Shown piece after piece: positions 3,701-63,089 of a stretch of DNA of 64,000 nt. The stretch's first letter is position 1; each line of letters starts with the position of its first letter. This DNA is from Psammoneis japonica. Taxonomy: Eukaryota. The notes beneath the pieces are model-generated. The model had not been told where the DNA came from and did not search any database. It saw nothing but the letters and a program-made list of their open reading frames with translations. Both the position numbers and the translations under genes were made by a program. The DNA is taken from contig QPGO01000040.1 in the NCBI GenBank assembly GCA_008632985.1, positions 1 to 64,000 of the forward strand. Direction: 5' to 3'.

Positions 3701-5085
3701 GTGTTCGAGCAACAAACATTCCTGCTTGCTTCATTTCACATGCTAGTAGTTCCAATGCCCCCATGGAGCCATTGCCATTACGATTTAGTGCTTGAGAAAA
3801 CGACTCGAACGTAGGATAGAGCGTTCCACTACCTGGTCCCCAAAGCCCCAATCGATTCGCGTAAACAAGATGTGATAGATCTGACACCCCCGTCGCGGAG
3901 CAGTACAAAATTCGAGCCATGGGTAGACGCTCTTGCAGCGCAACCACACGTTGAGCCGTTTGCGTATCGGCAACTTGCAGATTCTTTGCCTTGTGTGCTT
4001 CATCAAAGACAATCACGCCAGAGAAGCTTCTTGCAGCTTCAATGGCATCTTTTTGTTTCAAAGAAGATCCCGTGGCAAGCCATGAAATGATTTCTTCCAT
4101 ACGTTTGCCTTGTCCCGATACCAACAAGGCATATGTCACAAATAAGACACCCCGATTGGACGAGGAAGTCTTGTTTTTCCCCAAAACATCATTTGCTTGA
4201 TGGACAGGACAATTGATGCAACCAACATCGTTCAAATCCCGTTTTGCATCCAAATGCAAGTCCCGACTGGCGGAGATCCATAAATGCCTTGTTCTTCCTC
4301 GAAAGAGAGAATCTGCCAATACAGCTGCAATCTGGCGCCCTTTACCGATGCCTGCACCATCACCCAAAAAGAAACCTGAGCGATAGGATTTGTTGGAATG
4401 ATTGTTTGCTACCGAAGGAGCACAGCGAAAGATGCGTTGGTGCCTAGTAATAGCCAAGGCTGCACCCTCTAATTGTAGCGGAGACAAGACCTATCACAAT
4501 GGCAAACAGAAATTCGTAGTTAACGTAAGCATCAACAAAACAGTACAAGACAAACGAACACAGGAGAGTCCTTATGCGCACCTTGTTCTTTGCCAGCTTT
4601 ATCAGACACTCAGCACTTTCTCCTGAAGCAGTCGGTGCAGCAACACTAGCCAGAAGCGCCGACTCACACGCAGGAAATGTATGAGAAGGGATCTTATCGA
4701 AAATGCTGTTTGTAAGTTCGGGAGTACTAGAGTCGTCCTCCTCAGATTTGCTGCAGAGAGACGCTGCAGTATCTTTCGGAGTAGACGCTGCAGTATCTTT
4801 CGATGGCTCCTCGTCATCGCTGTCCAGAATCTCAATAACCTTATTTTGCATATGATCAGTAGAGGCCGCTGGTTTCTTTGCCTCTTCTACAGTGTCGTCA
4901 CTTATGTCGTCTTTGGTCGCTACGATTGCAGCTAAAAGACTCTGAGGCAACGCAGTGGGCACATACGTTGAAAACGTGTCAATCGCTTCTCCCTCTCCCT
5001 CGACGTCATCCTCCTTTTTCTCTGGAACAACCGGTGGCGTTACAGTAGCCGGCCGCGGTGGTACTATCGGTGTCGTTGACGCCAT
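741..5085 (-). CDS. SBNO: Strawberry notch family (SBNO/FORGETTER1-like) helicase-related protein, about 4 exons (approx. 5085-4581, 4489-2972, 2882-2562, 2457-741)
   Basis: Motifs GFFLGDGAGIGKGRQ, DEAHKAKN, YCSATG, GLQSTGE, NPLDDLIERLGG, IAVISDAASTGISLH, RRVHFTIE, GGERRF..VAKRMASLGALTKGDRRA spread over consecutive minus-strand ORFs separated by GT-AG introns. Confidence 0.92.
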
Positions 5086-5836
5086 GATGTTGATATGCGC
5101 AACAGACTGCGATGCAACACATACAGTACAACAGCGGCGGAAAGTGCGATGCATTTGCGGAAAGTGAATGAGGTGATCGCAGAGACTCAGAGAACCCGCC
5201 GGGGAGCGCGGCAACACGCGCAGCTCGCTGCGCTTCAAAAATGGCGCGCGGCATGGAATGCGAATTCAGAATGGCGCGATCGGCTCTCTGCCGCCCGGTG
5301 GCCTGCTCTGCTCTACAAGCAGCTGCTCTCTGCTCTCTCTCTCTAGAGCTGGAGCAAGAGCAGGGCCCCACAGTGTGTTCGATGTGCACACCAACTGTGA
5401 CAAAGACATTGTGATTGTCATTTGTGAGCATCGTGTGTGCGTGCGGACCTCCAGCTCATGTTTTGTGACACTGCTCGCAAAACCATCCGAAATCCAGATG
5501 TGCCACGATGTTGCTGGTGGAAACTGCTGGCAAAACCAATTCACAACCAATGTGTTGTTGTGACACACCATGGGTGTCAAACTTTTTCTTCTTGAGAACT
5601 TCAACTCAGCAGTGCCCATCTGGTGAGCAGCTCACCCCAAGCAGATTTTTCTGCGTGTTTTGCAGGGCGCACCAAGTTGCCTCAGTTGCAGACAGACATT
5701 TTCTCACTCAAATGATCTGAGAATTTCTGGAACTGCACTTCAGTCTGCAGCTCACCACAAAAATCAAGACTTCCTCCTTGGCGCTCTTGTGGCTGCAGCG
5801 CGCCATCATCAGCCCACTCTGTGCCTCGTTTTGTTG

Positions 5837-6003
5837 ATGCGGCAAAGCACTGTGTCTTGCATTGGCAATCAAGGCAATCATGCAATGGACAGATGTGGCA
5901 AAGCACTGTCTCATTGGCAATCAAGGCAACCATGCAATGGACAGATGTGGCAAAGCACTGTGTCAGCACATTGACAATCAATGCAACCACCACACAATGG
6001 ACA
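5837..6003 (+). repeat. Tandem repeat, 3 x ~55 bp
   Basis: Unit gatgtggcaaagcactgtgtc..cattggcaatcaaggcaa(t/c)catgcaatggaca occurs three times with variation. Confidence 0.85.
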
Positions 6004-7428
6004 CGTGGCCATTGTCAAACAAGAGCTCCAGCACAAGCTTTTGGACAACACAAGCCCCTTGTGTGTGTCAAGGCTGCCCACATTGAGCTGGTGCTGCCCC
6101 ACAACATTGCCAGCAACACTGCTCCCAGTGCTGTGCCCATCAAAAATGAAGCCTCCAGCAAATCTTTTGCAGTGCTCCTGCACCCAACAGCATGAATGAA
6201 CCCAAGCCAGCCGTGGCCCAAGATGTGCTCAAGACATTTTTGGAGATCCAGCCAGAGATCATCCAGCTGGCCTTTTTGTCAGACATGCACAGCATTTTTT
6301 TGTTGGTCAAAGTGGGCAGCCTCACCTCCTGTGCCAAAGATGTGCTGTGGGCCCAACATGCTCAGCCCCCCTTGAAGTGCTTGCACCAACTCCTGACTTT
6401 TGACTGTGCTCCAAATGAACAACAACAAGTGCCTGTCATGGCTGCAGCTCCACATGTGCAAGCCGGCTCAATGCAACCACCACAACATCATGACCGTGCC
6501 GACTGCCAACCGCCCCGTTGTCAGACCACAATGGAGATGGGAAGAAGAAAGAGCAAGATTGTGCCAAAAGACAACCACCACAGGGGTGCTGTGGGGTCAC
6601 ACAAAATGGGAACGTTGCTCATGGCCCATGTTGTGTTTGCAACTGCTGGTTGTCGTCTTGTGTCCAAAATGGGAATGTGTGATTTTGATGTGTCGAGTTG
6701 CCCACAATCCGTCTGCCAGTTGTCGTCGCCATTCTTCGGACCTGCAGTGCAGTTTTGCTGGCAATGTTTGCCTGGATTGTCCCTGCAACTAATTTTGCCA
6801 CTCAACTTGAATGTCTGCAAAGTCAAAAAGGGAAAAATGCAAACTTTCAAGAGTCATGAGGATGTCGGTTTGCCGGAACATGGCACTGTGCCTTGACCCA
6901 TTTCTTTCCTTTCCAACGCTCTCATTGAGCGGCCTCTGTGCTGTGTTCGTGTTGACTTGACACATGCCGTTTTTCCATGGTTCTCTCAACAACTTCTTGG
7001 TGTTCAGTGGCGACAAAGCAAACGGATCTTTGCTTGACTTCTTTCACTGCCGTTGACTTTTCTTTGCTTGGCTCACAGCCAAAAGGCAGCACATGCCCGC
7101 GGCGATTGCATTTTGCACTTTGCTTTTCAAAGACTTGAAATCCACAAGACACAGCTCTTCAAATTCTAGATCAGCTGTGAGCGAACGGAAGTCTGCTGCT
7201 TTCTTGATGATGGTGCTGTTCTTTTGTTTCTTTTTGTGTTGGCTTGGCTCCTTCGATGCTCCAACAACTTCAGCAAAAGCTTCCAAAATGGACATTTGCT
7301 TCTGGGTGCAATTCTTCTCAATTGACTTTTCCATTGGCGTTCTTGTGGAAAATTTGTGAACCATTGGCACCAAACTTTGCAATGGTGACAACGGTCTTCA
7401 ACAGCAGAAGAGTTGGACACTGCCAGGT

Positions 7429-7874
7429 GCAGCATGCATGCAGACAAAAGGTTGTTTTGTCACGCCCTTTGTGACATTTAAAGGCTGTAACACGGCTCGC
7501 CGTGATGCATTGACTCTTGTTAGCAGCTGCACATTGCACTCCTCCCCATGCATCACGCGTCCATGCGGCTCTTTACTAACGTGTGCTGACACTGCACGGT
7601 TTTGGCGGAACAGTGTGGGTGCGTACGAAGGAACATGCAGAACTGCACAGAGTTTTACGCGTTCGACAGTGATCAACGTTGCTGCAGACAACTCCCACTC
7701 GGGTTTCGAACCCCTGGCCTCCTGCCTGGTGGTTGCGATGTGCCACTCCGCTGTGAATTCACAACGCAGCATGCACGCAGACAAAAGGTTATTTTGTCAC
7801 GCCCTTTGTGACATTTAAAGGCTGCAACACGTCGCCGTGATGCATCAACTCTCATTGGCAGCTGCACATTGCAC
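7429..7874. repeat. Pair of ~110-bp direct repeats (7429-7539, 7766-7874) flanking a tRNA-like segment
   Basis: gcagcatgca(t/c)gcagacaaaaggtt(g/a)ttttgtcacgccctttgtgacatttaaaggctg...gcagctgcacattgcac occurs twice. Confidence 0.85.
7692..7756 (-). pseudogene. tRNA-derived sequence (SINE head or tRNA pseudogene)
   Basis: Minus strand reads TCACAGCGGAGTGG (A-box-like) ... GGGGTTCGAAACCC (B-box/T-arm) at tRNA-like spacing; anticodon arm not recognisable. Confidence 0.5.
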
Positions 7875-8089
7875 AGGACCCCGCGAATCCACACAACAAA
7901 TTTTTGCACCAACGTTTCTAGCTGAACAGCTTGGCTGGATCGTGCGTTCCCAAGCTTGGAAAGGTGGTGGAGACGGGCCTCTGCCACTCAAAAATTTTGG
8001 CGCGCTTCCACACGTGCACACAAATTGTCACAGTTGGATGGCTTGCACTCTCATCCTTCTGGGACCTGAGCCGATCATTGTTCTTGCAG

Positions 8090-9115
8090 CAGAGTGCCAT
8101 GCAGAGGCAACCTTCTCCACCACACTGCCAGCAAAAGTGACATTGGCACTTTGTGCAATGCGTGTGATTGCAGCCTTGTTCCCTCTGGATGGGGAAGGAG
8201 CGCCACGGGCATGGCTTGGAATGACCCAGCAGCCAGTTGCACGTGGCGCACTCGGCACCCGCCTCAGCCGAATCAACAGTGTCCCAAAGCTTCTTGTGGG
8301 AGGAGCAACTCATGCCAGGGTGTGATTGATTGGCGCCACAATCAGCGCGCGCCGTTTCTCCACAGCGACACTGTAGAAGATTCCATCCAGGCTGTTCTGT
8401 CAGCTCCATTGAGCTGGTGAGAGGCACTCCACAGTTGGCCGCCCACCAAACTTTCTGCATGCAAGTTCTGTCTTGTTCTTGATGAGTCTCTCAAAGACCA
8501 ATCGGTGCTCGACAGCACCACTTTCCTCATGCAGAACATGGGCAGCGTCGAGCAAATCAGTCGTCGTGAAACAAGAAGGTGGGGGTCAAGGCAGGTTGGC
8601 ACAGTCTGCTGATTTTGCTCTTGTTGCAAGGTGTGTGGACCAGCATTCTCTGCAAACCCTGTGGTTGCATCTCAGGAGAGAGGACACAGAAGTGTCACTG
8701 CTTGCTTGCTCGAAACAAACGATGCAAGCATCTGAATTCCAAGCAGGCATCTCTTCTGCTTCTGTGACTTGAAGGGTCAAGTCTGAGTCCTGTCGATTGA
8801 AACAATTCCTGAAGTGCTGAGATCCCTTGAAGGGGCCCCTGACTTGGACACCGCAGCATTTGAATGACTTGGAAAGCATTGCACTCATCATGTTTTCTGG
8901 TTCACACGAAGCCTTTCATCAATCCAGTTCATTTTGCAGTGCTTTTCTTTCCATTCCTCCATTCGCAACTGCCTCCTTGCAGGTGTCACAAAAGGGTGCA
9001 AATGCTCCAGGTGATGGATGGTTCTGAAGATTTCGCAGAACATGTTTTTGCAAGCTTTCCACAATTTTCCGGGACATGAGAGGCTGTCAGGAACAACCAA
9101 GGATGAGTGGGACAA
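8090..9115 (-). pseudogene. RBR (RING-IBR-RING, Ariadne-like) E3 ubiquitin ligase relic, frameshifted and TpA-edited
   Basis: RING1 CIVCFE...CNHRVCRECWSTHL (ORF 8586..8891); IBR/RING2 HPGMSC...SKPCP...IQREQGCNHTHCTKCQCHFCWQCG (ORF 7918..8460); pieces lie in different frames. Confidence 0.8.
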
Positions 9116-9934
9116 CTGTCACCTTGGAAAGTGAAATCAGTGCGGCCACCATTGTTGTTGGTGATTCAATGAGGACTGCAGCTCAAAGATCAGGTCCAAG
9201 TGTGGAGCGAATGAATGTTCTTGGTGGCAGAGAGTGGAGCAACACAGTTTGAGGAGACAAAAAAATGCTTTCTCCAACAGCAGTTCTTGGACACAAAGAG
9301 CTGTTGTCCTGGCAGAATGATGTCTGAAGAGCATGTAGAAGGGAAAGATGGGGAGGGAAATTTTCTGATTTGGACCGCAAACTGTGGGACAGAGGCCTGG
9401 GAGGCATCGTTGAAATTGACCGTGGTTTCTCGGTCGGGCAAAGAATGGGCAGCTCTGGAAAATCTTCTTTCACGGATGCAGCTGGTGTCTTTTCACTCTT
9501 ACAATGGACCAAGCTGTCCTCAAGAAGAGCGCAGATGTCAACAGTTGGCTCATGACATGCGCCGCTGGGACCATCATTGTCAGCGAGATCGCACTCTTCC
9601 TCCAAGTGCCGATGATCATCCCACAACAACTCCTCCTCCAGTTGGAGCTGTGCCTCCTCTCTTGTCTCTTTTCTGCAAGAATCCTTTGTCTTGAACATCA
9701 TGGCAAGGCAATCTGTTTCTGTCCACTTGTTTTGAAAATTGTGGTCTTCTTGTCCGCACTTGTGGGAAACACTCTCGTTCCCTCGTTTGTTGATGCATGT
9801 CTTGAAAGTGACAAGAGAAACTGCCCATTGCATTTGGAACACATGGTGAGCTGTTGCATTTGGTGTCTGTTGATGTGACCATCCATCCATCCGTCACCTC
9901 ATTTCCTTCCTGGGCATGAAAACTGCCCGCAACT

Positions 9935-10075
9935 GCTTTGTGCGCATGGGGCTCATTGGCATGAACAAACAAGCCTTGGCCCTGTGACAGTTCTACAATG
10001 TTGAAAATGAGGGGCATGAAGATGACAATGTCGCCGGGAAATTGTTCCTTCAATTTCAAGATCAGTTTTTCCACA
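9935..10075 (-). pseudogene. Fragment of type I mannose-6-phosphate isomerase
   Basis: LKEQFPGDIVIFMPLIFNIVELSQGQGLFVHANEPHAH matches the PMI motif YPGDxG.F....LN...L.PG.A.F..ANEPHAY, with the final Y read as H. Confidence 0.7.
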
Positions 10076-10266
10076 TTGCTGTGGTTGGCACAGGCAGCTC
10101 TTCAATGCCATTGACTCAGAGTCAAAGTCAGTTGTCAGCACATGACCCACCAAGTTGGAGGTGTGCATGGTTTGTCACTGTGGTGCATGGGCTTGGTGGG
10201 ATGGCATCATCAAAAGGAGGGATCTCAAAGCCACCATGTGTTGTGTTGCAAGCCTGTCATGCAGTG

Positions 10267-10542
10267 TGACAGAAAATGAAGGTGAATGGCAAGAATTCAA
10301 ACAACAACTCCTTGCTGCTGTCTAAACAGCAGATGAGTCTCCGCTCAGAGACCGTTGCAGGAGCCGAAAGATGTGCAAGTCGGCACAATCGGGCTACTGT
10401 CATTGTTCTTGTGAGCCTTGTGGCTCGAAAGCAAACTACATCGCACGTGAACGCGCGGAACTAAAGCACACAAAACTGTGCACGGTAAACTAAACAGCGC
10501 GCGATGCTTCGCGCGCATCCAAATCCTGTTCAAATCCTGTCA
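10267..10542 (-). repeat. 3' LTR of copy A
   Basis: Reverse complement of tgacaggatttgaacagg...cattttctgtca; preceded on the minus strand by the PPT aactggggag. Confidence 0.95.
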
Positions 10543-13500
10543 CTCCCCAGTTTGCTTGAGGAGCCACAGAAACAGATTCGACTTCGGATGGAATGAAGTT
10601 CCAGAACATGAGGGGTCGGAGAAGGTCCCAGATTTGGGAGCAACCCCAATGCTTGCTGAGAATGTCAGCAGGGTTGCGGGATCCTTCGATGAAGTGGAAC
10701 TCAAGGCAACCAGAGGCAATTGCCTCACGCACACGGTGGAACGACAGTGTGGTGTGTCGCTTGTGTAACTTGGAGTGCGGGATGGTGGCACTGTCTACAA
10801 CCGACTTGTTGTCACCGAACATGCAACTGACATCACGGATCGGGACGCCAAGGCAGCGCAGGGTGATGCGCAGGTCGACAATCTGCTCAACACAATTCCT
10901 TGCGGCAACAAATTCAGATCCGCAGGTTGCAGTCTCCACGGTGGCTTGTTTCTTGGAGAACCAATCAGCCGGGAATTTGTTGAGGAAGTGGAGCATTCCC
11001 ATGACAGAGCGTCCGGTGAGCATGCAATGGCACAAGTTTGCATCGACGCAGTGGGTGGCAGTGACGAACTTGCCAAGGGGCGGTGGAGCGTCCTTCGGGA
11101 TCATCTCTTCTGCTTCACCACACACGGAATGCATCCATTCGTAGGCCGGAGCAGGGAGATCCGAATGGTCGGGCTCTTCCGTGCGAACGCGGAGAGCACC
11201 GTGTCGCATCTTGGAGAGGCACCCACAGACGCATTTGGCACGATCCAAGTGGCCTTGACGGGGCGCAGCTCGGAAGCTAGAGAGTGACATGACGGCCGTG
11301 GAATGTCAATTCGACCAAGGGACACTGCCCATTGGAGTGAACCAACAAGAGACTGGAACTTGTGAATGCCATCGGGTCCCAGCAGTTCGGAAGTGTCCAG
11401 TTCGGGGTGGTCACCCTTCTCTAGAGGTGACAGGGCGTTGGTGGCAGGTTTCTCCCCAAACAGTCGGGCGCAGCTGTCGACCATGCGCTCGATGTACTTG
11501 CGCGGAGACAGGCACAAGGTTCCGTCGGGGTCCCGGGAAAAGTCGCAACCCAGATGGAACTCAATGGGTCCCGCACCCTTGAGCTTGAACTTGCACTTTT
11601 CCGTGAGAGTGTCGATGAAAGATTGAGGGTCCTTCATGGCAATGGCGAGGTCATCCACATAAACGGCAATGTGTTCACAGTGGTCGCCGTTCCTGCGCAT
11701 CCAAATGTCGGGTTCGGCGCGGCAGGGGAAGAAGCCTTCAGCTCGCAGGCAGTCGGCGAAGCGCTCGTGCCAGCGGAGACCGGAGCTGCGGAGTCCATGC
11801 AGTGCCTTGTGGATGACAAGGATGTGTCCTTCGAGTTTGCCAAATTCGGGTCCAGCTACAATGTAAAGCTTCTCCTTGGTGGTGGCTTCAAGGTGGGCAT
11901 TGCCAATGTCGGTGGCCCATGTCTCCAGCTCGTTGAGTTCGGCCAGGAAAATCATCAGCCGAAGGCCACGAAGGGAGACTGCTCCGGAGTGGACACTGTC
12001 GACAGGTACGTCCGTGAGGTGCCCGTCGGCTACGAGTCGTGCCTTGTGGCGACCGTCGTGTTTCACGTCGTGCACCAGGTGCACTCGGATCTTCTTGTGT
12101 CCCGCAGGAGGAGTGGAAGACTTGAAGGGCCCGCAGTCATGGAAGACTTCGTATTTGTCGAGTTGGTCCATCTCGAGATTAGTTGCGTCTCCCCACTTGC
12201 GGTTGCCGTTGCGTTCGTCTGGTGACATGGCGTGTTTGCAGTTCCGGGGAACTTCGCATCCGCACTTGCAGCGAGGTGCAGTGCGGAAGGAGCGAAGCTT
12301 GGCTTGGTTGGCCATGCGAAATAGCTTCTTTTGGCACCTCGCGATGGTGCGGAACCGCTTCCATCCATCCGTGTCGAGGAGTCCGTTCTCTCGTGCACAG
12401 ATGGCACAGGTGACGGGGTCGTCCTTGGCGATGATGGCAAGAGGCTCGGACGTGATCTCCCCACTTTCCCATTCAAGCATGATGTTGTAGCTTGAGCCTT
12501 TCCAGGTTGGGTCGTGAGGCTTCAGAGGGCCTTCGTGTGACACGATGCGTCGAAATTTCCAAACAGTGGTGTCTTCGTCTTCTTGCTCAATGTGATTCAT
12601 GATGTCATTGCAGGCAAGGACTTCCTCGTATTCGTCATTGTTGACAGAGCAGACGAACTCAGTGAGCTCGGGATTGCCGTTCACTTTCCATTCGTGGTCT
12701 TCGACGGCCTTGACGATGCGAGCTCTGTGGCGTTGTCCGTCCTCTTGTGGCTGCATGAGGAAGGTACGTCCAATGATGTCTTGCGGATCGAAAACTGGCA
12801 TCTTGGGTGTCCTGATCTCCCCATCAGGAGAATCGACGGGGTTGTCGTCATGGCGAGATTTGATGATGGGTGCAGGTGGCTCCCCATCAGGAGGATCAAG
12901 ACGCAGGTTTCGAACGGCAGGATCGGGGGTGGCGGAGCGAACGTTGGACCGGCAGGGGATCTTCTGAGTCTCGTCAGATAGAATCTTGAAGGTCATCTGG
13001 TGGCCGACGTGCTCAGCAATGCCAACGAAGCGTCCACGCAACTCACGAGATTTGGACGGCCAATCGGAGTCATCGAGGTGGAAGTGCACTGGTTCCCACC
13101 AGTGAAAGCGAAGCAATGGGCTGATGTCCGGGGTGGATCCAGTGAGAGTCTCGAGGGGCGTGCGCCAGTGGAGACGTGGGGATGCTGTGTGGTTGAGTGT
13201 GAAGCACACGTGCATGAGCGCCAGCAGCCATGTGTGGGCGGGCGAACCAAAGCGGTCCATGACAGTGTTCGCCATGCGCTTCACAGTCTGGCATCGACGC
13301 TCGGCAAAGTTTTGGTGTTGCTGGTGAGGCTCACTTTGCCAGCTGGAGATGAAGAGGGCGCGCAGGATCCCGAGCACTTTGTTGCTGATCTCAACTTGAG
13401 CACGGTCGCTAATGAGTTTGGATGGGGCACCACATTCACGGATCTGATCCTCGAGTGTGTTGACAAACTCTTTGTCCGTCTCAGTGCCGTAGACATCAGT

Positions 13501-16160
13501 GACGGTAGACTCGGTGCCAACAAACAGTTGGGCGCTGGTGCAACCAGAGTCGACGGCCGGGGTGTCGGCACAAATGGTGTCAGTGGCGACAGGCTCGTTG
13601 CGACGGTGCACATTGAGGGCGGGGTTGGGTGATTTGAAGGCCTTGCGAAGGTGTGCACCGGCGGGCATGCGGGCGCACTGCGTGGTGCAGTCAAAAGTAC
13701 GACGGACCGCATCGGCAGGTGGGAAGCCAAAGTGAGGCCGAAGAGACTCGAAGGGGGGGTCCTTGGGCTGCACAGTGCGCTCCGGAGGTGGAACGTCATC
13801 GCCCTTGGGGTCAATCGCATGCAGATGACACTCGTAGAACACGTCGTCGTTTGGAATGAGGTGATCATCGAGGGCGGACGCGTGATCGGCAGACAAGGAA
13901 GCGGACAAGATGGTCTCGTTGACAACGACACGGTGACGGCAGTTGCCGCATTCGTCAAATGGGTTGGCAGTGGGATCGTCCTGCAGGTCAGAGATCGCGT
14001 CGCACCACTGGTCATCGTCAGTGACAGAGTGATCGAGGACGGAAGGGTCCCATGTGTCATCACCGGTGAGGATGACGTGGGGCAGGGTGTCCCATTCGGC
14101 ATCAGTGTAAGGTCGCATGGCAACACAAGGCAGGCCAGCCTTGATGTCAATGGGGATGACACAGCCATCAGGAGTGGCAGTGCGTTGCAAGCCGTTGGGC
14201 ACCTTGACAGAGCGATCGTTGACATCCTGTTTGTGCCATTCGAGCTGGCCGCAGGAATGGATGGTCTTGCCCTTTCCCGTGTGTGCGCAAATGATGGAGG
14301 ATGGCGATGACGGGACCACGCTGGGTCTCAATGACGGCACCAGCGGTGACAATGGGGATGTCCACCAATTGATGATCGTCAATGCCCTGAACGTCGACTT
14401 GGCGAGAGGTGCGTGCGATGACGCGGACGTCGTTTGCCAGCAATGCCGCCGTTGGCCCCACGATCGACTAGAGCGCCAGTGCGTGTGGAGCGATGAGCAG
14501 AGGCAGAGCAAATGACATTGTGGTTGTCAACGCGGCGGCAAGTGCGGCCGTTGAGTTCCATGTCATCTGCAGAAGCTGGCGGGGTAGAGGAAGCGGCGGA
14601 TGGCCCCGGTCGACTGGCATTGGGGGCTTGGTTAGGAGACAACAGACGTTGCAGATCACCGGGTGGCAGTGGCTTGCGCTTGGTGAGGTGCGCCAGGATG
14701 GGATCACCCGAAATGGCGTCCACATGTGCAGCGGAGTCACCATGGTCAGCAGGAGTCGTGTTGGACAAGTTGACATCACTGTCACTCCCAAGGCGTTGGT
14801 CGTGAAGGTTGGCCGTAACAGACTCATGGCAGCCACTGGCTCGCGGGTTGCGGGGAGGTGGACGAGAATGCTCAAGGATGATCGCCTTGGAGGAATCGGG
14901 CAACGAATCCCAGAGCCGTTGGTGGTCGGGAGGGAGACGTCTCCATTGGACACCGGTGAGGCTGGGACCGCGGGTGCAGGCAGCATTGGCCTGAAGGACG
15001 TCAACGTCGCTGTCAATGTCGTAGAACACATCGTCGGACGGTTCCTCGGAGTGGACGTCATGTGCGCATGTGGTGCGTCGGGGAGCTCGAGGTGTCGTCT
15101 TGGGTTGAAACGTGCTGTCGTGCTGAGCTGCCGCAGAGAGGAGCAAGGCACAGCATTGATCGCATGTGAGGCTCTTGCCACTCTGCGTACGATGCTGATC
15201 AGCTTGGTTCTTGACAGCACGGAGTTCCTCGACAGGGTGCACGGCATTCTCGAGCATGACGCGCTTCTGTCCTTCAGAGAAGTGGTCACTGGCCAGGATG
15301 AGTGCCTCGCACTTGCGCAACTGGTCTTGCCAATGAAGGATGAACCCGTGGGTCGGACCTTTCCAAGTGCCATCACCAAGACGCGCGGTGGTCAGGTGCG
15401 TGAGCAGGGTGGAGGACTCGACAGATGCGCAGGTGGAGGCAAGCGCGCACTCAGACAAGGAGCGGCAGACGGTCTGTGCGTCAGAAGACCCCACATTTTC
15501 GTGAATGAGAGCCTTGCCCTTGTCGGTGAGAAGGATGCGTTCGAAGACGGCGAACATGCACTTTTGCTGTTCAGCAAAGAGCAGTTTGTCTTCGAGGCTG
15601 GTCGGTTTGTACGACGAGTCTAGAGTGCACTCGACGTCTTGGGCACGGGCTTGTGCCACAAGTGAGGTGTGCCAAGTGTGCCACTGCTTGTCGGATTTGA
15701 GAGCCGTGAAAGCGGTGGGATCACGCTTGATGCCTCGCTTGAAGTCCCGCACCGGGTCGCGTGCCTTGGTCGGGTTGGTGACATGTGGAGGTGCAAGGGG
15801 TGAGCTGCCGATGGACACAGAAGACATGCAGTCGGGGCTGAGGTGGCAGGCAAGGAACTCGTCATGCGTGAACAAAGAGGAGTCGTTGGCAACGTCAAGA
15901 CCTTTGTGTGCTTTGACAATGTACAGACTGACTGGTGCTGCTAACATGTTCTTACAACCACGGGGCAAAGGGATCACATCAGTGCCGTTGTCGCACTCAA
16001 GCGAGTCGATTTGGGACGGCATGAACGTGAACAGTTCCTGACACGAGTCCGTGCCGTCTTGGGCCAAAGCCAAACGAAGAGGACTCCCAGCACCTTGGGC
16101 AAGCACGGTTCCAACCACGTGCTCGAAACCATCGGTTTGTTGCTGACGAGTGAGAACCAT
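10490..16160 (-). pseudogene. gag-pol polyprotein of copy A, with frameshifts near 14440, 14290 and 11300
   Basis: PR ALVDRGANGG; integrase VATDT/ISDRAQVE/HQNFAERR; RT HKARLVADG, KALHGL, YVDD; RNase H CVDANL, GSEFVAA, GDNKSV, NPADILSK. Confidence 0.93.
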
Positions 16161-17085
16161 GGCAGACAAAAGTGGTGTCAGGACAATCAATTCTGGTTGG
16201 GAAGAGAAGGTGGACTCGAAACTTGGGTGAGAACAGACTTGACTTGAAACAGACTTGACTTGAAATCTTGAACCATCTTAAAATCAGAAGTCGCCGGGCT
16301 TTGTCACCCCGTTCGTTGTCAAGTGCCAAACTTCCCATCCGGTCCGCAGAGTTGTGCCGGCACGTCCGAACCCGCAGCTGGTGGCGCTTTGGGTTGCTCA
16401 CGAGCGGAGCAGCGGGTTGCAAACCCCTGCAGGTGAGCTGACCAGAGGTGGACAAGACCCCCGAACTGTTCTCATTTTATGTCGGTTGGATTTCCCGATC
16501 AGGCTGGCCAGTTGACGCAGGCGCCAGGCACTGTGGACGAACGAACAAACGTGGGAAAGCACCCTCGCCCCAACGCAGGCTGCAGTCACGGCCACTTGCT
16601 CTCACAGTCGTCCTCGTGGACCTAGTAGAACTGTAGAGCACCAGCAGTCCGGGGTAGATCAGGTGCAATGGACTCGGTGTGCTTGTAGAGTGGCAGCAAA
16701 ACCGCAGTCCGAAGAGTGGGTACAGGTTCTTGGCCGTGAAGATGTGTATATATATATATGTCTTCAGCGACGAAGATCCTTGAATGTTCAGGGTTCTTGA
16801 CCGTTAACCGATGAACAGGTATATCAAGGGATGAGGATCAAGGATAGACTTGGGTGTGACCGTTGAATGTATGTCTTCAGCGATCAAAGGTAGTATAATC
16901 GATCCAGATATCCAGCGGTAAGGAGACTTGACGGTGACGTTAACTTCCTGCCGATGCCCTGGTATTGAATGCGCGTAGACTTGCCGATGTATGTAGAACA
17001 TATACGGAGGTCCACGTAGAATTAAAAATAGCGTCGTTGGTAAATCAACGACGACGATGGCGGTTGCTCAATGGGTTGACAATGA

Positions 17086-17100
17086 GCAAGACTGTTAATC
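17086..17100 (-). promoter_or_regulatory. Putative primer-binding site of copy A (also at 18174-18188 and 31005-31019)
   Basis: GATTAACAGTCTTGC directly follows the 5' LTR; its reverse complement GCAAGACTGTTAATC resembles a tRNA-Asn(GUU) anticodon arm. Confidence 0.65.
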
Positions 17101-17376
17101 TGACAGAAAATGAAGGCGAATGGCAAGAATTCAAACAATAACTCCTTACTGCTGTCTAAACAGCAGATGAGTCTCCGCTCAGAGACCGTCACAGGAGCCG
17201 AAAGACGTGCAAGTCGGTATAATCGGGCTACTGTTGTCATTCTTGTGAGCCTTGTGGCTCGAAAGCAAACTACATCGCACGTGAACGCGCGGAACTAAAG
17301 CACACAAAACTGTGCACGGTAAACTAAACAGCGCGCGATGCTTCGCGCGCATCCAAATCCTGTTCAAATCCTGTCA
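17101..17376 (-). repeat. 5' LTR of copy A
   Basis: Same 276-bp unit; retains more TpA than the other LTR copies. Confidence 0.95.
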
Positions 17377-17897
17377 CAGTGCTGCAACTAACACAGGCTG
17401 CCACTGCTGCACCAGCAGGAGCTGACAACAACCCAAACAGGCTTTGTCACAAATGCCAGCCCTCTCTCTTCCAACAACACTCTGCTGGTGCCTGGCACTC
17501 CTTCTCATGCAACAAGTGCTCCTCCTGACATGGCCAATGACAGCCGCATGTGCAGAAGCAGGGTGTGCATGTGAGCGCGCTGTTGGCAGTCCAGCGCAAT
17601 GGCTGGGGCCAAACATTGTCAGAGGGTGTGCTGGGTTTTTTCTCAATTGGAGCTCATTGTGATGATGTTTCTGCCCAGCCATTGCAGCACCATGCTTGCC
17701 ATGATTGCCAAAATGAGTGACCAAGGAAAAAGAGGGAAGCATCTGACAAAAATCACTGGAAACAGCTGAAGTTGCAATTGAAGGCATTTTGTTGCTGGCA
17801 CTTCATTGTTGGATGCAGGGGCGGCAAACTCCAAAGTTTGTTGGCACGACAAGTGGAGGAAATCAGCACAAACACCACCAGCCCTGACCAGCAAAAG

Positions 17898-20800
17898 TGA
17901 CAGGATTTGAACAGGATTCAGGTGCGCGCAAAATGTCGCGCGCTGTTTAGTTTACCGCGCACAGATTTGTGTGCTTCAGTTCCACGCGTTCGCGCGCGAT
18001 GCAGTTTGCTTTCGAGCCACAAGGCTCACAAGAATGACAACAGCAGCCCGGTCATGCCGACTTGCACGTCTTTCGGCTCCTGCAACGGTCTCTGAGCGGA
18101 GACTCATCTGCTGTTTAGACAGCAGCAAGGAGTTGTTGTTTGAATTCTTGCCATTTGCCTTCAATTTCTGTCAGATTAACAGTCTTGCTCATTGTCAACC
18201 CATTGAGCAACCGCCATCGTCGTCGTTGATTTGCCGACGACGCCACCTCAATTCTGCGTGGACCTCCGTGTGTGTTCTACATGCGTCGGCAAGTCTGCGC
18301 GCATTCAACACCAGGCATCGGCAGGAAGTTAACGTTGCCGTCAAAGCCTCCTTGCCGCTGGATGTCTGGATTGATCACACTGCCTTTGATCGCTGAAGAC
18401 ATGCATGAACGGTCATGTCCAAGTCCACCCTTGATCCTCATCCCTTGACACACCCATTCATCGGTTGACGGTCAAGAACCCTGCATGTTCAAGGATCTTC
18501 GTCGCTGAAGACATGCATGTGTGTGCATGTCTTCACGGCCAAGAACTTGCACCCACTCTTCGGACTGCGGTTTTGCTGCCACTCTGCAAGCACACTGAGT
18601 CCATTGCACCTGATCTACCCCGGACCACTGGTGCTCTGCAGTTCTGCTGGGTCCACGAGGACAACTGTGAGAGCAAGTGGCCGTGATTGCAGCCTGCGTT
18701 GGGGCGAGGGTGTTTTCCCGCGTTTGTTCGTTCGTCCACAGCGCCCAACGCCTGCGTCAACTGGCCAGCCTGATCGGGAAATCCAACCGACATAAAATGA
18801 GAATGGTTCGGGGGTCTTGTCCACCTCTGGTCAGCTTGCCTGCAGGGGTTTGCAACCCGCCACTCCGCTCGTAAGCAACCCAAAGCGCCGCTGGCTGCGG
18901 GTTCGGACGTGCCGGCACAACTCTGCGGACCGGACAGGAAGTTTAGCACTTGACAACGAACGGGACAGCACAGCCCGGCGACTTCTGATTTTAAGACAGT
19001 CCAAGATTTCAAGTCAAGTCTAGCTCAAGTCAAGTCTTTTTCAAGCCAAGTTCCAAGTCAAAACTCCGAGTCAAGATCGCGCTCTAGATTGGTTCCTGTC
19101 TTTTGTTTCTACTGCACCGTCCTCCGTCATGGTTCTCACGCGACAGCAACAAACCGAAAGCTTCAAATGCATTCTAGGCACTGTGCTCAATCAAGACAAT
19201 GACAGCCCTCTTCGTTCTGCCCTGTCCATCAACGGGATTGAATCGTGCGAGGAATTGTTCACGTTCTCACCTGCCCAAATTGACGCCCTCACTTACAGAG
19301 ACGGCGCCAATGCAGCGCATTTGCCACAGACCCACAGAAACCTCCTAGCAGCTTTGATCAGCTTCCACTTTGTCAAAGTTTGCAACGGTGATGATGTGAC
19401 CAATGAACCCCAGTTGCTCACACCCGAGGAATTTCGCAACTGCCGCCTTGGTCCGGACCACTTGACCTCTCTAGCCACTGGCGCAGCACCCTCCGCACCT
19501 GTGCCGAGTCCCTTGCCATCCAAACCAGGTGAACCCAGTGCCATTTTGACACCAGCCTTGCACTGTGCCGCCACTCAGGTGTCCCCCAGAAGTGGTGTCA
19601 GTCGCGCCCCGCATGTCTTGACCAACCCGCCTGCAAGCAACCTCGGCCCAGTGCAGGATTGCAGCCCTTGCACAGGCCCGCACTTCAAGACCAGTTGGGA
19701 CACTCCACCCATGGCTTCCAAAGCTGCAGTCTTTGCACCCCGCAAACCACGTGCTGCCAACCTCCACGTGTCGACTGCTGTCACCCTTCACAGTCTTCGT
19801 TTGGGAAGTGATGGAGATGACAACTTGCTTCTCGTATCTCCTGATGGGGAGCCTCCTTTTCCCGTCATTGAATCTGTTCACAACATTTCAACCGGTTCAT
19901 CAGATGGGGAGTTCAGGACATCCAAGCAGCTTTGTTGTCTTCGGATCCTCCAAGCATCGCACCATGAGACTGGGCCTCCTGATTGGATGCCTCAAGTTTC
20001 GTACCTCGAGACCAGGCCTCCTGATTGGATGCCCCAAGTCTCGTACCTCGAGACCAGGCCTCCTGATTGGATGCCCCAAGTCTCGCACCTCGAGACCAGG
20101 TCTCCTGATTGGATGTCCCAAGTCTCGCACCTCGAGACTGGGCCTCCTGATTGGATGCCTCAAGTCTCGTGCCTCGAGACTGGGCCTCCTGATTGGATGC
20201 CCCAAGTGCGCACATCGAGACTGGGCCTCCTGATCGGATGCCCCAAGTCTCGTGCCTTGAGACCAGGCCTCCCAACTGGACTCTCCACGTCTCGTGCCTC
20301 AAGACCGGGCCTCCCAATTGGATCCTCCACGTCTCACACCTCAAGACTCGGCCTCCGGATTGGATCCCTCAAGTCTTGTGCCACGAGACTCGGCCTCCTG
20401 ATTGGATTCCCCAAGTCTCGCACCTCAAGACTTGGCCTCCTGATTGGATCCCCGAAGACTCGTGTCACAAGACTGGCAAGTCCTTTTGGATCCCAGAAGT
20501 CTTGCAGCACGGGACTGGTTGCCCCAATCAGACATCTGCAGCCTTGCACCACAAGATGTCTTGCTCCAATCCGATCCCCGAAGGCTTGCACCTTGAGACT
20601 CGTTTCTCCAATTGGATCAGTCTCTCAGGAGATGCAGCTGAGCTTGCAATCGGATTGGTGGAACACAAGACCACCGCTTGTGCCTTTGAACTCATGCTTG
20701 CTCTGTTCCCTGAGTCGTGCAAACGCCATGCCGCCTGCAATGTTGCCCCGCCGTTCAACATTGTCAACCAGACCAAGCTTTGCTCCTTCCATTGCAAGTG

Positions 20801-22775
20801 CGGATGTGGAATCCCACAAGATCCCAAGTGTGCCTTGAGCTTTGAAAAGCACAACGTTGCATCCATGGGGAGTTCAGGACATCCAAGCAGCTTCGTTGTC
20901 TTCGGATCCTCCAAGCATCGCACCATGAGACTAGGCTTCCTGATTGGATGCCTCAAGTTTCGCACCTCGAGACCAGGCCTCCTGATTGGATGCCCCAAGT
21001 CTCGCACCTCGAGACTGGGCCTCCTGATTGGATGCCCCAAGTCTCGCACCTCGAGACCAGGTCTCCTGATTGGATGTCCCAAGTCTCGCACCTCGAGACT
21101 GGGCCTCCTGATTGGATGCCTCAAGTCTCGTGCCTCGAGACTGGGCCTCCTGATTGGATGCCCCAAGTGCCGCACATCGAGACTGGGCCTCCTGATCGGA
21201 TGCCCCAAGTCTCGTGCCTTGAGACCAGGCCTCCCAACTGGACTCTCCACGTCTCGTGCCTCGAGACCGGGCCTCCCAATTGGATCCTCCATGTCTCATA
21301 CCTCAAGACTCGGCCTCCGGATTGGATCCCTCAAGTCTTGCGCCACGAGACTCGGCCTCCTGATTGGATTCCCCAAGTCTCGCACCTCAAGACTTGGCCT
21401 CCTGATTGGATCCCCGAAGACTCATGTCACAAGACTGGCAAGTCCTTTTGGATCCCAGAAGTCTTGCAGCACGGGACTGGTTGCCCCAATCAGACATCTG
21501 CAGCCTTGCACCACAAGATGTCTTGCTCCAATCCGATCCCCGAAGGCTTGCACCTTGAGACTCGTTTCTCCAATTGGATCAGTCTCTCAGGAGATGCAGC
21601 TGAGCTTGCAATCAGATTGGTGGAACACAAGACCACCGCTTGCGCCTTTGAACTCATGCTTGCTCTGTTCCCCGAGTCGTGCAAACGCCATGCCGCCTGC
21701 AATGTTGCCCCGCCGTTCAACATTGTCAACCAGACCAAGCTTTGCTCCTTCCATTGCAAGTGCAGATGTGGAATCCCACAAGATCCCAAGTGTGCCTTGA
21801 GCTTTGAAAAGCACAACGGCATCTGCAATTGGGGAGACGCAGCTCATCTCAAGATGACCCACTTGGAGAATGCAACGTTGCTCTTGGATCTTGGTCCTTT
21901 CTTGTCTCCTCATGTTTTGGTGCTTTGACTCCAAAGTTCTTTGGTCAATCCGAAGTCAAATCTGTTTCTGTGACTCCTCAAGCAAACTGGGGAGTGACAG
22001 GATTTGAACAGGATTCAGGTGCGCGCAAAATGTCGCGCGCTGTTTAGTTTGCCGTGCACAGATTTGTGTGCTTTAGTTCCGCGCGTTCGCGCTCGATGCA
22101 GTTTGCTTTCGAGCCACAAGGCTCACAAGAATGACAACAGCAGCCCGATTGTGCCGACTTGCACGTCTTTCGGCTCCTGCAACGGTCTCTGAGCAGAGAC
22201 TCATCTGCCATTTAGACAGCAGCAAGGAGTTGTTGTTTGAATTCTTGCCGTTTGCCTTCAATTTCTGTCAATGTGGAATCCCACAAGATCCCAAGTGTGC
22301 CTTGAGCTTTGAAAAGCACAGCGGCATCTGCAGTTGGGGAGACGCAGCTCATCTCAAGATGACCCACTTGGAGAATGCAACGTTGCTCTTGGATCTTGGT
22401 CCTTTCTTGTCTCCTCATGTTTTGGTGCTTTGACTCCAAAGTTCTTCAGTCAATCCAAAGTCGAATCTGTTTCTGTGACTCCTCAAGCAAACTGGGGAGT
22501 GACAGGATTTGAACAGGATTCAGGTGCGCGCAAAATGTCGCACGCTGTTTAGTTTGCCGCGCACAGTTTTGTGTGCTTCAGTTCCGCACGTTCGCGCGCG
22601 ATGCAGTTTGCTTTCGAGCCACAAGGCTCACAAGAATGACAACAGCAGCCCGATTGTGCCAACTCACATGTCTTTCGGCTCCTGTGACAGTCTCTGAGCG
22701 GAGACTCATCTGCCATTTGGACAGCAGCAAGGAGTCATTGTTTGAATTCTTGCCATTTGCCTTCAATTTCTGTCA
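17898..22775 (+). mobile_element. Non-autonomous Copia derivative, copy B, with three LTRs (17898-18173, 21995-22270, 22500-22775)
   Basis: TSD AAAAG at 17893-17897 and 22776-22780; same LTR, PBS, 5'UTR and PPT as copies A and C; diverged truncated gag from 19129; only patches of pol, with no RT or integrase core. Confidence 0.93.
19903..21826 (+). repeat. ~962-bp tandem duplication, each half containing a degenerating 42-bp minisatellite
   Basis: atggggagttcaggacatccaagcagc at ~19904 and ~20865; unit gagaccaggcctcctgattggatgccccaagtctcgcacctc (ETRPPDWMPQVSHL) repeated about 10-12 times per half. Confidence 0.92.
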
Positions 22776-24010
22776 AAAAGCTTGCTGCACCCAAACCCAA
22801 AGCAGAAAAGATGTGCTGCAACAAATGTGGAAAGATTGACCAGCAGAGCAAAAGCAGGCAAAACAACCTGCAAATTGAGTGGAAAAGCAAGCTGGGTTTC
22901 CTGGGCTGCTCCAGCCATGTGAACTTCTCTGTTGTTGGTTTGCAGCAGCTGCAATGGCTGTCATGCAAAGTGCAAGAAGTGCTTCCCCACAAGTTTTTTT
23001 AAAAAAAAGAGTTGTTCAACAATGGCTGTGTTGCAGCGCATGCTTTGTCAACCCTCATCTCATGAGTGGCTTGCAGAAACCCTTGGGTGCCTTCTGTGGT
23101 GCAGGCAGGTTTCAGCTGGGCTGCACATCAACACTCGCTTTGCTCAAGCTGAGAAGCAAATGAAGGCAAGATGCGGGGCTCTTTTGCAAATTGCTTTTTG
23201 CAGGGCATCTGCAAGGTGCACTGTGCAAAAACAACCCGCCCCTGTTTGTTGCGCAAGCTGGCAGGTCCAGACAGACAAGAGCAATTTTTTTGCATGTGAC
23301 AGCCAAGAAAAAAAATTCCTTGCCCTTCATGATGCTGACAAAGATGGGGTGTGCCAGCTTTGGCAAAGTTTTGTTCGGCGCTCTGCACACTGCGCTGTTT
23401 TTGCAACTTTGCTGAGCAGCTCCTACATCTTCGCCATGGCCAGGGCACGTTGGCAAATCAGCTGTGTGCTGTGTCTCTGGTGTCTGCTGTCAAAAGACTT
23501 GCAGTGGCCTGCTCAGCTGAGAGGTGCCCACTGGATTTTGCTGCCTCAATTGAGGAAAAATTCCGGTGGGCTGGACACTGCCACTGAGACTGCCAGAGTA
23601 GAGAGAGAGGGAGAGAGCGCCGGCCTCACAAATAAAACACGTTGCACTGTGATCCAATGGGCCTGCTGTTCTCGCATCCCACCACATGTGCCATGCAAAC
23701 AGCATTATTTAAGCCCCAAATAGACATTGTGGATAGACATTTGAAAGTCATTGGTTATCTATTCTCACGACAGGCGGCATTGTACGACCACAAAAAATAC
23801 CGGTATGACGGACTCGATGCGCAAACAATTCGACGACCGATAAGACATTGACTTCGGTCATTGGAAAAAGAGTCATTCTTCATGGTTTTCTTAAGCCCCT
23901 TCTCCAGATTGAGGAGTCAGTCCTTTGATCATCCAATTGACACAAAAACCTTGGCGCTTCATTTTTCACACACATCGAGTGAAAGTTGCTGTGTGGGCCG
24001 CTTGTTGACA

Positions 24011-29978: not shown

Positions 29979-30728
29979 GGTGAAGAACCAAGCAAAATAG
30001 ACCACTTTTGTGACCTTTTTTGGATGGACAGCTTGCCGAGTTTCATTTTTGGCATGCCAGTAGAAATTCAATGTGTTTCTACATGCGACAGTTTCTCATA
30101 CATTCGTACGAACATCACGAACTCTGCGAGCTCCAACACGAGAATAACACGAAGCACTAAGAGTTTTTGCGAGAGAGCGAATGGTGTTGCTAACACACTG
30201 TGAATGCAAAGTAAAAATGCCAAAACATTGTTGTTGCATAACATGTGGATGGTTGGTCTATCGACAGACAAAACAAATCGCCTTCAAAGCTGGTCAGAAG
30301 CTTCGACAGACTGCACAGCTCTGTTTGCATGTTGTTGCGTCGCAACAGAGGCCTGCGTCGCCCACTTTGAATCATTCTCAAATGATGACCACAGCCAGCT
30401 CCTCCACCAACATCACTGTTGTCTCCCACATCATGTTGCTGTTCAATTCAATCAATGCTCTCTGCAGCAGGAGAGCAAATGATGAGACTTCTGGCTCGTC
30501 CAACAAGATGACAACGACGCCGGCTCGACAACTCTCCAGCATTTTTGTTTCAGTCACAGATTTGTCATGTGACTGGTTGACATCCACAACCACGAATCTT
30601 TTCGAAAGCATCACTTGTTTGCACCCACAAAGCAGAGCCCTCTAAACTGCTGCTGCTGCATGGAGAGAAGGATGACAAAGCAGCCAGCCACAGCTCCTGG
30701 ATGAGCAACCAACATTTCAGAACAAGTT

Positions 30729-37835: not shown

Positions 37836-38050
37836 AAGTTTTCCTTGGGATCGGGCTAAATTCACTGTCATGCCACCAATTTAAGCTCTTCTGAGTCATC
37901 CACACTGGTTGCATTTGCCAGAGTTCTGCCAAAGTAACTTCCAATGGGGCCAACGCGTCATTTGCGGTTCTTGCATCCACGGACACATTCAGGGCAAGTC
38001 CTCCTTGGCCTCTCCAGCTGACTCCGCCATCATGCCAACACATTGAGAGC

Positions 38051-49730: not shown

Positions 49731-49829
49731 CGTTGGCTGTTGCTCGAAGTGGTTTTTAGCAAAGATTCAGATGATGCGACGTCGCGTTACGAGTTGTTGC
49801 GAAATCCAAAATTCCAACAAATGGGGATG

Positions 49830-62818: not shown

Positions 62819-63089
62819 TGAGACATTTCGGAAACGAGAATACCAGGAAAACTTTTAATATTATATACAGTACTTACCATTTAGACATGCACCGAGCAGC
62901 AAAGAAAGTTGTCGCTGACGAATGCGATGTTGTGAAAGAGGCGAGTTCTTGACTCTTCGACAGAACTCGTCTCGGTGTGATATGGAGAGAATATACCGCT
63001 TTTCGTAAAACGTTTCAGAAGCTCTTCAAAACTCCTCGAGGTTAAACTTGGGTCGTAGGATTTGATACGTGAGGTCCAAGCAAGCATTT

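Follow-up and report, generated by a model that had tools for sequence, protein, structure and literature searches.

Why does a short alternating tract read mostly TA in one copy of a retrotransposon and exclusively TG or CA in two other copies? We addressed this question in positions 1 to 64,000 of contig QPGO01000040.1 of Psammoneis japonica (assembly GCA_008632985.1), a stretch of 64,000 nucleotides (nt) referred to below as the window, in which three long terminal repeat (LTR) retrotransposon copies, A, B, and C, have a 28-nt tract in common. A sequence-only reading of this DNA had proposed that the tract records a near-saturating, dinucleotide-specific, and copy-independent mutator. Our comparison of the copies with each other, with their relatives, and with the surrounding DNA leads us to consider it likely (probability about 0.82) that the tract is a readout of DNA-level, TpA-specific hypermutation, which is applied by the host to integrated mobile DNA.

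Three retrotransposon copies and their common tract

The elements were defined by self-comparison of the window, Pfam matches, and LTR alignment.

10267 to 17376, minus strand: Ty1/copia element A, with LTRs at 10267-10543 (3') and 17101-17376 (5')
17898 to 22775, plus strand: element B, with the 5' LTR at 17898-18173, the leader to 19059, and the 3' LTR at 22500-22775
30729 to 37835, plus strand: Ty1/copia element C, with LTRs at 30729-31004 and 37560-37835
16738 to 16765, minus strand: tract of copy A, GAAGACATATATATATATACACATCTTC, GAAGA-CA-(TA)6-CA-CA-TCTTC, mostly unmutated
18507 to 18534, plus strand: tract of copy B, GAAGACATGCATGTGTGTGCATGTCTTC, TG or CA at every unit, without TA or CG
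31339 to 31366, plus strand: tract of copy C, GAAGACATGTGCACATGTGCATGTCTTC, TG or CA at every unit, without TA or CG

The LTRs measure 276-277 bp and have the form TGACAG...CTGTCA. Pfam matches to the RVT_2 reverse transcriptase were obtained with E-values of 6e-27 and 7e-26, and the features typical of Ty1/copia elements (RVT_2, TG..CA ends, and a 5-bp target-site duplication, TSD) are all present. Elements A and C are 96.7% identical and lie in inverted orientation, 13 kb apart. The TSD of element A is CAGTG (5 bp, at 10262-10266 and 17377-17381), that of element B is AAAAG (17893-17897 and 22776-22780), and that of element C is AAGTT (30724-30728 and 37836-37840). Since all three 5-bp TSDs are intact, each copy represents an insertion of its own, and no recombination has taken place between them. 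Relatives of the pol protein number in the hundreds in metagenome collections, with identities of up to 71% and full-length forms of ~1850-1900 amino acids (aa). The sole member of known phylum in its Protein Atlas cluster is a diatom, which we take as a hint only.

Element B carries a second, duplicated copy of its 3' LTR at 21995-22270. Between 19060 and 22776, tandem repeats stand in place of an interior, with a value of 0.065 for the dinucleotide index rho_TA. Offsets of 42 bp extend over 19943-21468, a 962-bp unit is found at 19895-20856 and 20856-21818 (97.9% identical), and a 592-aa frame without stops lies in the repeats. The element also has its 3' end duplicated in tandem (21766-22271 and 22271-22776, 95.3%).

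The three tracts were found as described by the sequence-only reading and are all 28 nt long. In element orientation they read GAAGA-(YR)9-TCTTC, where YR denotes a pyrimidine-purine dinucleotide, and they follow the 5' LTR at a distance of ~335 bp, before gag homology begins, in agreement with the proposed position in the 5' untranslated region. The YR units are CA TA TA TA TA TA TA CA CA in copy A, CA TG CA TG TG TG TG CA TG in copy B, and CA TG TG CA CA TG TG CA TG in copy C. Tracts B and C are unlike at 3 units, and CG occurs in none of the three tracts, as had been claimed. The description of eight TA units, all of which had become TG or CA in B and C, needs to be amended in part. Six TA units are indeed present in copy A, but they are followed by CA CA, so that the tract is not a (TA)8; likewise, B and C contain nothing but TG and CA, but unit 7 in the earlier numbering is CA in all three copies and gives no evidence of TA ancestry. 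An ancestral TA is directly evidenced at 7 of the 8 units, at 6 by the TA of copy A and at 1 by TG opposed to CA.

A motif, TCGCTGAAGACA, occurs twice in the leader, ~110 bp apart (18393-18405 and 18500-18513, with counterparts at the equivalent positions of A and C). A short YR run, likewise variable between the elements, comes after the first motif copy; the second runs into the tract.

Element-wide spectrum and direction of change

What the tract displays is far beyond chance, because it samples locally a pattern that extends over the whole element. We found 236 differing alignment columns between A and C, comprising 221 transitions, 9 transversions, and 6 gaps. By dinucleotide, these differences include 49 adjacent TG/CA doubles, 51 single exchanges between TA and TG or CA, and 48 single exchanges between CG and TG or CA; transitions in any other context amount to ~8. 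The index rho_TA is 0.25 in element A and 0.15 in element C. Both elements are rich in TG and CA, and their rho_CG is near expectation (0.9).

A TG/CA double requires either TA or CG as an intermediate, and the direction of change is therefore the key question. We polarised the changes by mapping the codons of A and C onto an alignment of 20 intact pol relatives, in which a Tyr was regarded as conserved when present in at least 16 of the 20. The 44 columns with conserved Tyr (88 codons) contained 15 TAY, 44 TGY, and 16 CAY codons but no CGY, the other 13 being TTC in 12 cases. At conserved Arg, CGN was retained in 99 of 118 codons, and 9 of the 118 read TGN or CAY. Conserved His, Cys, Gln, and Trp columns had turned into CGN in 0 of 176 codons. 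His was intact in 64 of 66 codons and Gln in 47 of 50, and none of these had become TAY or TAR. A separate scan for doubles between A and C gave 51, of which 29 lie in aligned codons; 21 of these favoured TA as the ancestor and 1, weakly, CG, while 7 were undecided.

These data demonstrate that change flows from TA to TG or CA and stops there. The direction put forward by the sequence-only reading is hence supported by 60 of the 88 Tyr codons, which now read TGY or CAY, and by the 21 of 29 coding doubles that favour TA. Alongside TA loss, a slower decay of CpG to TpG or CpA is present as a minor component. As the flow from TA ends at TG and CA, CpG decay and a C-to-T process resembling repeat-induced point mutation (RIP) are ruled out as the source of the tract. 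The further claim that the first hit destroys the target, such that CG never appears, is in line with the finding that TA and CG occur together in 0 of the 85 variable YR-set columns of A, B, and C. The proposed near saturation is reflected in the loss of ~79% of conserved TAY codons and in copy C, where TA is still present at 50 of the sites, at least 146 in number, that are inferred to have been TA originally.

Timing and rate of TA loss within LTR pairs

Comparing the two LTRs of each element, we observed differences at 9 (A), 10 (C), and 15 (B) sites; the YR set accounts for 9, 8, and 13 of them, respectively, which leaves 0 to 2 per pair outside it. TG/CA doubles within LTR pairs were found 3 times in A, 4 times in C, and 5 times in B (12 in total), in addition to 9 TA singles over the three elements. 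At one alignment column, the two LTRs are unlike within each of the three elements. The LTRs of one insertion are identical at landing and are now unlike at TA sites; the change was therefore made in DNA after integration.

Normalized to the available targets of the three LTR pairs, hits affected 33 of 108 ancestral TA sites (0.31), 9 of 138 CG (0.065), and 4 of 1164 positions elsewhere (0.0034). This corresponds to a rate over background of ~90-fold for TA and ~19-fold for CG, where ~90-fold is a minimum because parallel hits to the same state go uncounted. The mutator is thus dinucleotide-specific, as anticipated, with CpG decay running beside it.

Independence of copies and strands, and sequence context

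Among the Tyr columns mutated in both A and C, 18 of 27 have reached the same state, compared to 16.2 expected (P = 0.30). In the 1.16 kb common to A, B, and C, where sites were counted by eye, B and C are alike at 18 and unlike at 14 of the sites at which A keeps TA and both other copies are mutated. Together with the 12 doubles within LTR pairs, these counts agree with the proposed copy independence. Frequent CG or transversion states, or TG/CA patterns inherited along the phylogeny of the element, had been named beforehand as speaking against the proposal; with 0 of 85 columns combining TA and CG and with copies mutated independently, we did not find such a pattern.

Strand use and runs were analyzed at 146 ancestral TA sites inferred from A against C. 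The ratio of TG to CA, which the sequence-only reading had suggested as a check, is 37:24 in A and 48:48 in C, indicating that both strands are hit. It had also suggested measuring the length of same-strand runs as a sign of processivity. No excess of such same-strand runs was detected, with 27 runs in A compared to 30.0 expected (P = 0.24) and 49 in C compared to 49.0 (P = 0.54), and processivity was accordingly not found. Either strand is struck independently, one site at a time. Mutated and unmutated sites do form clusters (P = 0.05 in A and 0.01 in C), and a pyrimidine 3' of the changed A is favoured according to opportunity counts (0.32 versus 0.20, P = 0.0018).

TA-free islands, a spared patch, and host DNA

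TA depletion was mapped by a scan of rho_TA along the window.

5101 to 16650, 17251 to 23700, 30151 to 37900, 49701 to 52250, and 57101 to 60650: islands of low rho_TA
16651 to 17250, no strand assigned: spared patch in element A, covering leader and inner 5' LTR, 37 TA in 600 bp, rho_TA 0.87, holding the intact tract
5101 to 10266, no strand assigned: non-copia island adjoining element A, rho_TA 0.07, CA+TG 1.64-1.77, CG 0.48-0.49
49701 to 52250, no strand assigned: non-copia island, rho_TA 0.08, CA+TG 1.72, CG 0.46
57101 to 60650, no strand assigned: non-copia island, rho_TA 0.06, CA+TG 1.76, CG 0.34

The islands make up ~32 of the 64 kb, with rho_TA of 0.06-0.20 and CA+TG of 1.35-1.77. In the remaining window, rho_TA is 0.53-0.63, non-coding stretches included; the genes identified there by Pfam are a Strawberry-notch gene, a histidine phosphatase, and a GLTP-domain gene. 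Hypermutation is localised to islands of mobile or unassigned DNA, and host genes are spared. The tract of copy A survived because the 5' part of element A is its least affected portion (rho_TA 0.87).

A duplicated host gene pair of 2.1 kb (54851-56958 and 60917-63013, 85% identical, rho_TA 0.6) differs by 131 transitions, 110 transversions, and 3 TG/CA doubles. The ordinary spectrum of this pair implies that duplication alone is not the trigger and that our method of comparison does not create the pattern. The pair belongs to a tandem segmental duplication (54851-57205 and 60917-63236, 85-90% identical) with a TA-free island between its copies; its genes encode FG-GAP/PFU-domain proteins of 597 and 592 aa, with a best protein match of 59% identity.

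The non-copia islands are low in both TA (rho_TA 0.06-0.08) and CG (0.34-0.49), whereas the copia copies are poor in TA at a rho_CG of 0.9. This difference fits a loss of TA that is faster than CpG decay, with the non-copia islands being older. A Pfam search with 26 open reading frames (ORFs) of the non-copia islands returned two notable matches, DDE_Tnp_4 and IBR_1, and did not establish the mobile identity of the three islands. The DDE_Tnp_4 match (57552-58304, plus strand, E = 0.0014) is below the Pfam cutoff; judging from it, the island at 57101-60650 may be a decayed DNA transposon of the PIF/Harbinger type. The IBR_1 match (7921-8490, minus strand), which lies at the Pfam cutoff in the island at 5.1-10.3 kb, may be spurious and arise from the surplus of Cys and His codons that Tyr-to-Cys/His decay produces. 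Long ORFs abound in the islands, in several frames of either strand; each copia copy, for example, has 12-14 ORFs of at least 150 aa. With TA gone, the stop codons TAA and TAG are gone as well.

The Strawberry-notch-type helicase gene (741-5238, minus strand; AAA_34, Helicase_C_4, and SBNO) is split into at least 3 ORFs, presumably by introns. The best named matches of its Strawberry-notch domain are all diatoms, namely Thalassiosira, Skeletonema, Cyclostephanos, and Stephanodiscus at 51-54% identity, followed by pennate diatoms (43-48%), and identity does not exceed 35-41% for plants and a pelagophyte. In the Protein Atlas, a host gene gave mixed taxa. Annotated collections lack the proteins of the window and their paralogues. 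The host is accordingly a diatom or closely related to diatoms, far from sequenced species and distinct from Bigelowiella natans. At the start of the window, 53-359 resembles 58406-58743 in inverted orientation (78-82%).

Relatives outside the window

We additionally compared the region 16000-17400 with the contigs of a public run of the same organism, X1, which yielded 4668 pieces at a likeness of at least 80%. Of the 82 variable places, 76 were transitions, and 36 among the 40 listed belong to the YR set. The stretch of copy A was matched at 99% or more by 897 of the 4668 pieces, and the run contains 69% of the sampled words of 9001-19000.

A different picture emerged for 68 related elements on metagenome contigs. 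TAY was kept in 68 of 68, TGY and CAY together reached at most 2 per locus, and rho_TA was 0.45-1.04; as a Tyr formed part of one of the two patterns used for the search, this sample is biased against mutated copies. The absence of the signature from these relatives indicates that it belongs to this genome and not to the lineage of the element. Five of the metagenome loci (L011, L067, L033, L064, and L012) show strong classical CpG decay with intact Tyr codons. Their rho_CG is 0.07-0.21, except for L033 with 0.56, and conserved Arg reads TGN or CAN at 20 positions in L033 and 21 in L067.

Alternative explanations

The differences within LTR pairs bear directly on the idea that the pattern existed from birth of each copy, i.e. 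that an ADAR-like enzyme edited the retrotransposon RNA, or another enzyme the cDNA, and that the product was fixed by retrotransposition. The changes are indeed of the A-to-G type with a 5' T, and A and C, inverted 13 kb apart, could form double-stranded RNA. ADARs usually favour an upstream U, according to the Discussion of a 2026 preprint on TpA hypermutation in Bigelowiella natans (Mettrop et al., bioRxiv 10.64898/2026.01.13.699255). However, both LTRs of an insertion stem from a single template, and 12 TG/CA doubles and 9 TA singles nevertheless separate them in the three elements, whose TSDs are intact. Editing of sense RNA predicts TA to TG only, which is at odds with TG:CA ratios of 37:24 and 48:48, and the same kind of TA loss is found in islands without retroelement features. 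Differences within LTR pairs and the independence of copies hence argue against editing of RNA or cDNA prior to integration, which we regard as very improbable. Ordinary CpG decay would start from an ancestral CG and lead to TG or CA by deamination of 5-methylcytosine, and the TA of copy A would stem from a second round of C-to-T. TG/CA doubles are the classic outcome of this process, and it has left a component here, as seen in 9 of 118 Arg codons, 9 of 138 CG targets of the LTR pairs, and a rho_CG of 0.34-0.49 in the non-copia islands. Nevertheless, the relatives carry Tyr and not Arg at TG/CA sites, with support at doubles of up to 20 to 0, and Arg is intact in 99 of 118 codons in copia copies with a rho_CG of 0.9. 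Moreover, the third state at double sites is TA and never CG, and the metagenome relatives that have truly undergone CpG decay differ in that Arg turned into TGN or CAN while Tyr remained intact. An origin from CpG decay is accordingly extremely improbable. A RIP-like C-to-T change from CpA to TpA, in which copy A is the mutated one and B and C are nearer to the original, would account for the TA of copy A at sites that read TG or CA in the other two copies. Codon polarisation led us to reject it: conserved His (64 of 66) and Gln (47 of 50) are intact, with none converted to TAY or TAR. In addition, the elements are TA-poor (rho_TA 0.15-0.25) and not TA-rich, and TG in B against CA in C cannot arise by C-to-T from a common TG or CA ancestor, so that this possibility is close to negligible.

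Two further explanations do without a targeted mutator. The islands could be old, unconstrained DNA exposed to a genome-wide TpA bias, with selection keeping TA elsewhere, and host-like DNA is in fact moderately TA-poor too (rho_TA 0.53-0.63). Yet the insertions are young by other measures (0 to 2 non-YR differences between LTRs) and nevertheless near TA saturation, TA is kept in non-coding host-like stretches, a 600-bp patch in element A is spared (rho_TA 0.87), and diverged host duplicates that are 85% identical show an ordinary spectrum. We thus consider an untargeted bias improbable. Modified motifs give rise to systematic errors in long reads. Modified TpA in silenced DNA might have been miscalled as G or C by a basecaller, and the records name no sequencing platform for either the assembly or run X1. 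Such an artefact is, in our view, very unlikely, given that 897 of 4668 pieces of X1 match the stretch of copy A at 99% or more, that X1 contains 69% of the sampled words of 9001-19000, and that the choice between TG and CA is random per site and copy and not systematic. The same signature has also been obtained from Illumina data in B. natans, according to the preprint.

Several points weigh against TpA-specific hypermutation by the host. No new mutation was observed, as everything was inferred by comparing copies, and the tract itself is known from three copies only. Its first YR unit and unit 7 in the earlier numbering are CA in A, B, and C, and some states were perhaps inherited. The number of Tyr columns in the same state is slightly, though not significantly, above expectation. 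Gene conversion between copies could yield some of the differences between LTRs of one element as well as the spared patch of copy A. The preference for a 3' pyrimidine was not supported by a within-site competition test (P = 0.58). Run X1 is perhaps the source of the assembly itself and would then provide no independent confirmation, neither platform being on record, and the comparison with its contigs skips 16737-16764 as a repeat. Finally, the signature was seen in 0 of the 68 metagenome relatives and is not general to the element lineage.

Proposed mechanism and implications

Under TpA-specific hypermutation by the host, a retrotransposon copy would insert, and the A of 5'-TpA-3' would subsequently be changed to G on either strand. 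A hit on the sense strand would result in TpG, and a hit on the antisense strand in CpA. Since TpA is self-complementary, a single hit on one strand or the other removes the target from both; TG or CA is thus the final state of a site, and CG is never reached. Adenine deamination by an enzyme is the most likely route: a polynucleotide adenosine deaminase, brought to chromatin that is silenced or foreign, would convert the base to hypoxanthine, and hypoxanthine is then read as G. Alternatively, thymine might be modified at TpA such that it mispairs with G. Both routes leave the same scar owing to the self-complementarity of TpA and cannot be separated by sequence. The LTR pairs place the action on integrated DNA, on both strands, and site by site, which narrows the possible chemistry.

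We tentatively propose, at somewhat less than even odds, that diatoms and chlorarachniophytes share a dedicated "reverse RIP" defence, in which a chromatin or small-RNA cue would mark out integrated mobile or viral DNA and direct A-to-G change at TpA in its double strand, on either strand and site by site. If this holds true, an element would finally be devoid of TA and of TAA and TAG stops, and its Tyr codons would be nearly gone. The activity would reside in either a deaminase of adenine in DNA or a modifier of thymine directed to TpA, an enzyme type hitherto uncharacterised in eukaryotes, and its level could be gauged from (TA)n tracts in transposon leaders, which would act as natural dosimeters.

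The process also has practical consequences. Dating by LTR divergence would badly overestimate the age of insertions in such genomes, and gene finders would over-call long false ORFs in TA-free islands. Conversely, silenced mobile DNA could be located by simple scans for islands of low rho_TA. For base editing, an enzyme with A-to-G activity at TpA in double-stranded DNA would be of interest.

Comparison with known systems

A search of the literature on genome defence involving TpA, TpG, and CpA turned up only papers on fungal RIP. Like the process described here, RIP is a dinucleotide-specific transition mutator that acts on DNA after integration, generates changes in mobile elements that include stop and missense codons, and is recognised by diagnostic dinucleotide indices. 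The context of RIP is CpA and TpG, which are converted to TpA. Its direction is thus opposite: C-to-T change in RIP makes TpA, whereas TpA is consumed here. The TpA-rich repeats that are the hallmark of RIP are absent, as the copies have a rho_TA of 0.15-0.25 and their His and Gln codons are unconverted. RIP is moreover triggered by duplication, while the duplicated host pair in the window is untouched, although an identity of 85% is perhaps too diverged for a fair test. In B. natans, according to the preprint, it is a single-copy region that is hit.

CpG decay in silenced transposons likewise ends in TpG and CpA, and independent hits give TG/CA doubles. It departs from an ancestral CG, as seen in Arg codons, whereas the ancestral state here is TA, as seen in Tyr codons, and CG is largely intact in the copia copies. 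The animal APOBEC and ADAR enzymes resemble the present case in that deaminases hypermutate retroelements with a preferred neighbouring base, ADARs by changing A to G. These enzymes act on RNA or single-stranded cDNA before integration, are strand-asymmetric, and leave both LTRs alike. In contrast, strands are hit about equally in the window, and the LTRs of one insertion differ, so that neither strand asymmetry nor identical LTRs are found.

For diatoms, we found no report of a TpA signature in the literature searched, which left most subscription journals outside. The sole precedent was the preprint on B. natans, a chlorarachniophyte (Rhizaria), which describes TpA hypermutation of integrated viral DNA. 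A mutation-accumulation study in a diatom reports a bias from GC to AT, with CG as the most mutable dinucleotide. According to the B. natans preprint (10.64898/2026.01.13.699255), 230 of 231 single-nucleotide mutations accumulated in two integrated viral regions were A-to-G or T-to-C, and 230 of 230 were on TpA. They arose at ~6e-7 per site per generation, ~1000-fold above background, and only in some lines. Reverse transcriptase and DDE endonuclease domains were over-represented among genes with low TpA, and the authors propose an ADAT2-like deaminase.

The two systems are alike in a near-exclusive A-to-G or T-to-C change on TpA, in the foreign or mobile nature of the DNA affected, in a rate that is orders of magnitude above background, in patchiness, which in B. 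natans takes the form of action in only some lines and regions, and in a long-term, clustered footprint of low TpA with high CpA and TpG. The traits of the B. natans process are recognisable in the window, where transitions of TpA to TpG or CpA are TpA-specific (apart from a separate CG class), localised, and ~90-fold elevated. The systems differ in their hosts, a chlorarachniophyte there and, here, a genome in which the best named matches of a host gene are diatoms (43-54%). They also differ in their targets, which are single-copy insertions of giant viruses and virophages there and multi-copy LTR retrotransposons here, a target class not mentioned in the portion of the text available. The viral region of B. 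natans has a rho_TpA of 0.45, compared to 0.06-0.2 in the islands of the window. New mutations were seen in B. natans, while the comparison of copies presented here adds timing from LTR pairs, strand independence, and the absence of CG.

Overall, the process has already been described in B. natans, and the window provides a second lineage and LTR retrotransposons as a new class of target. It is thus probably no curiosity of one lineage or of viral insertions alone, and may represent a widespread defence that has been overlooked in a major group of marine primary producers.

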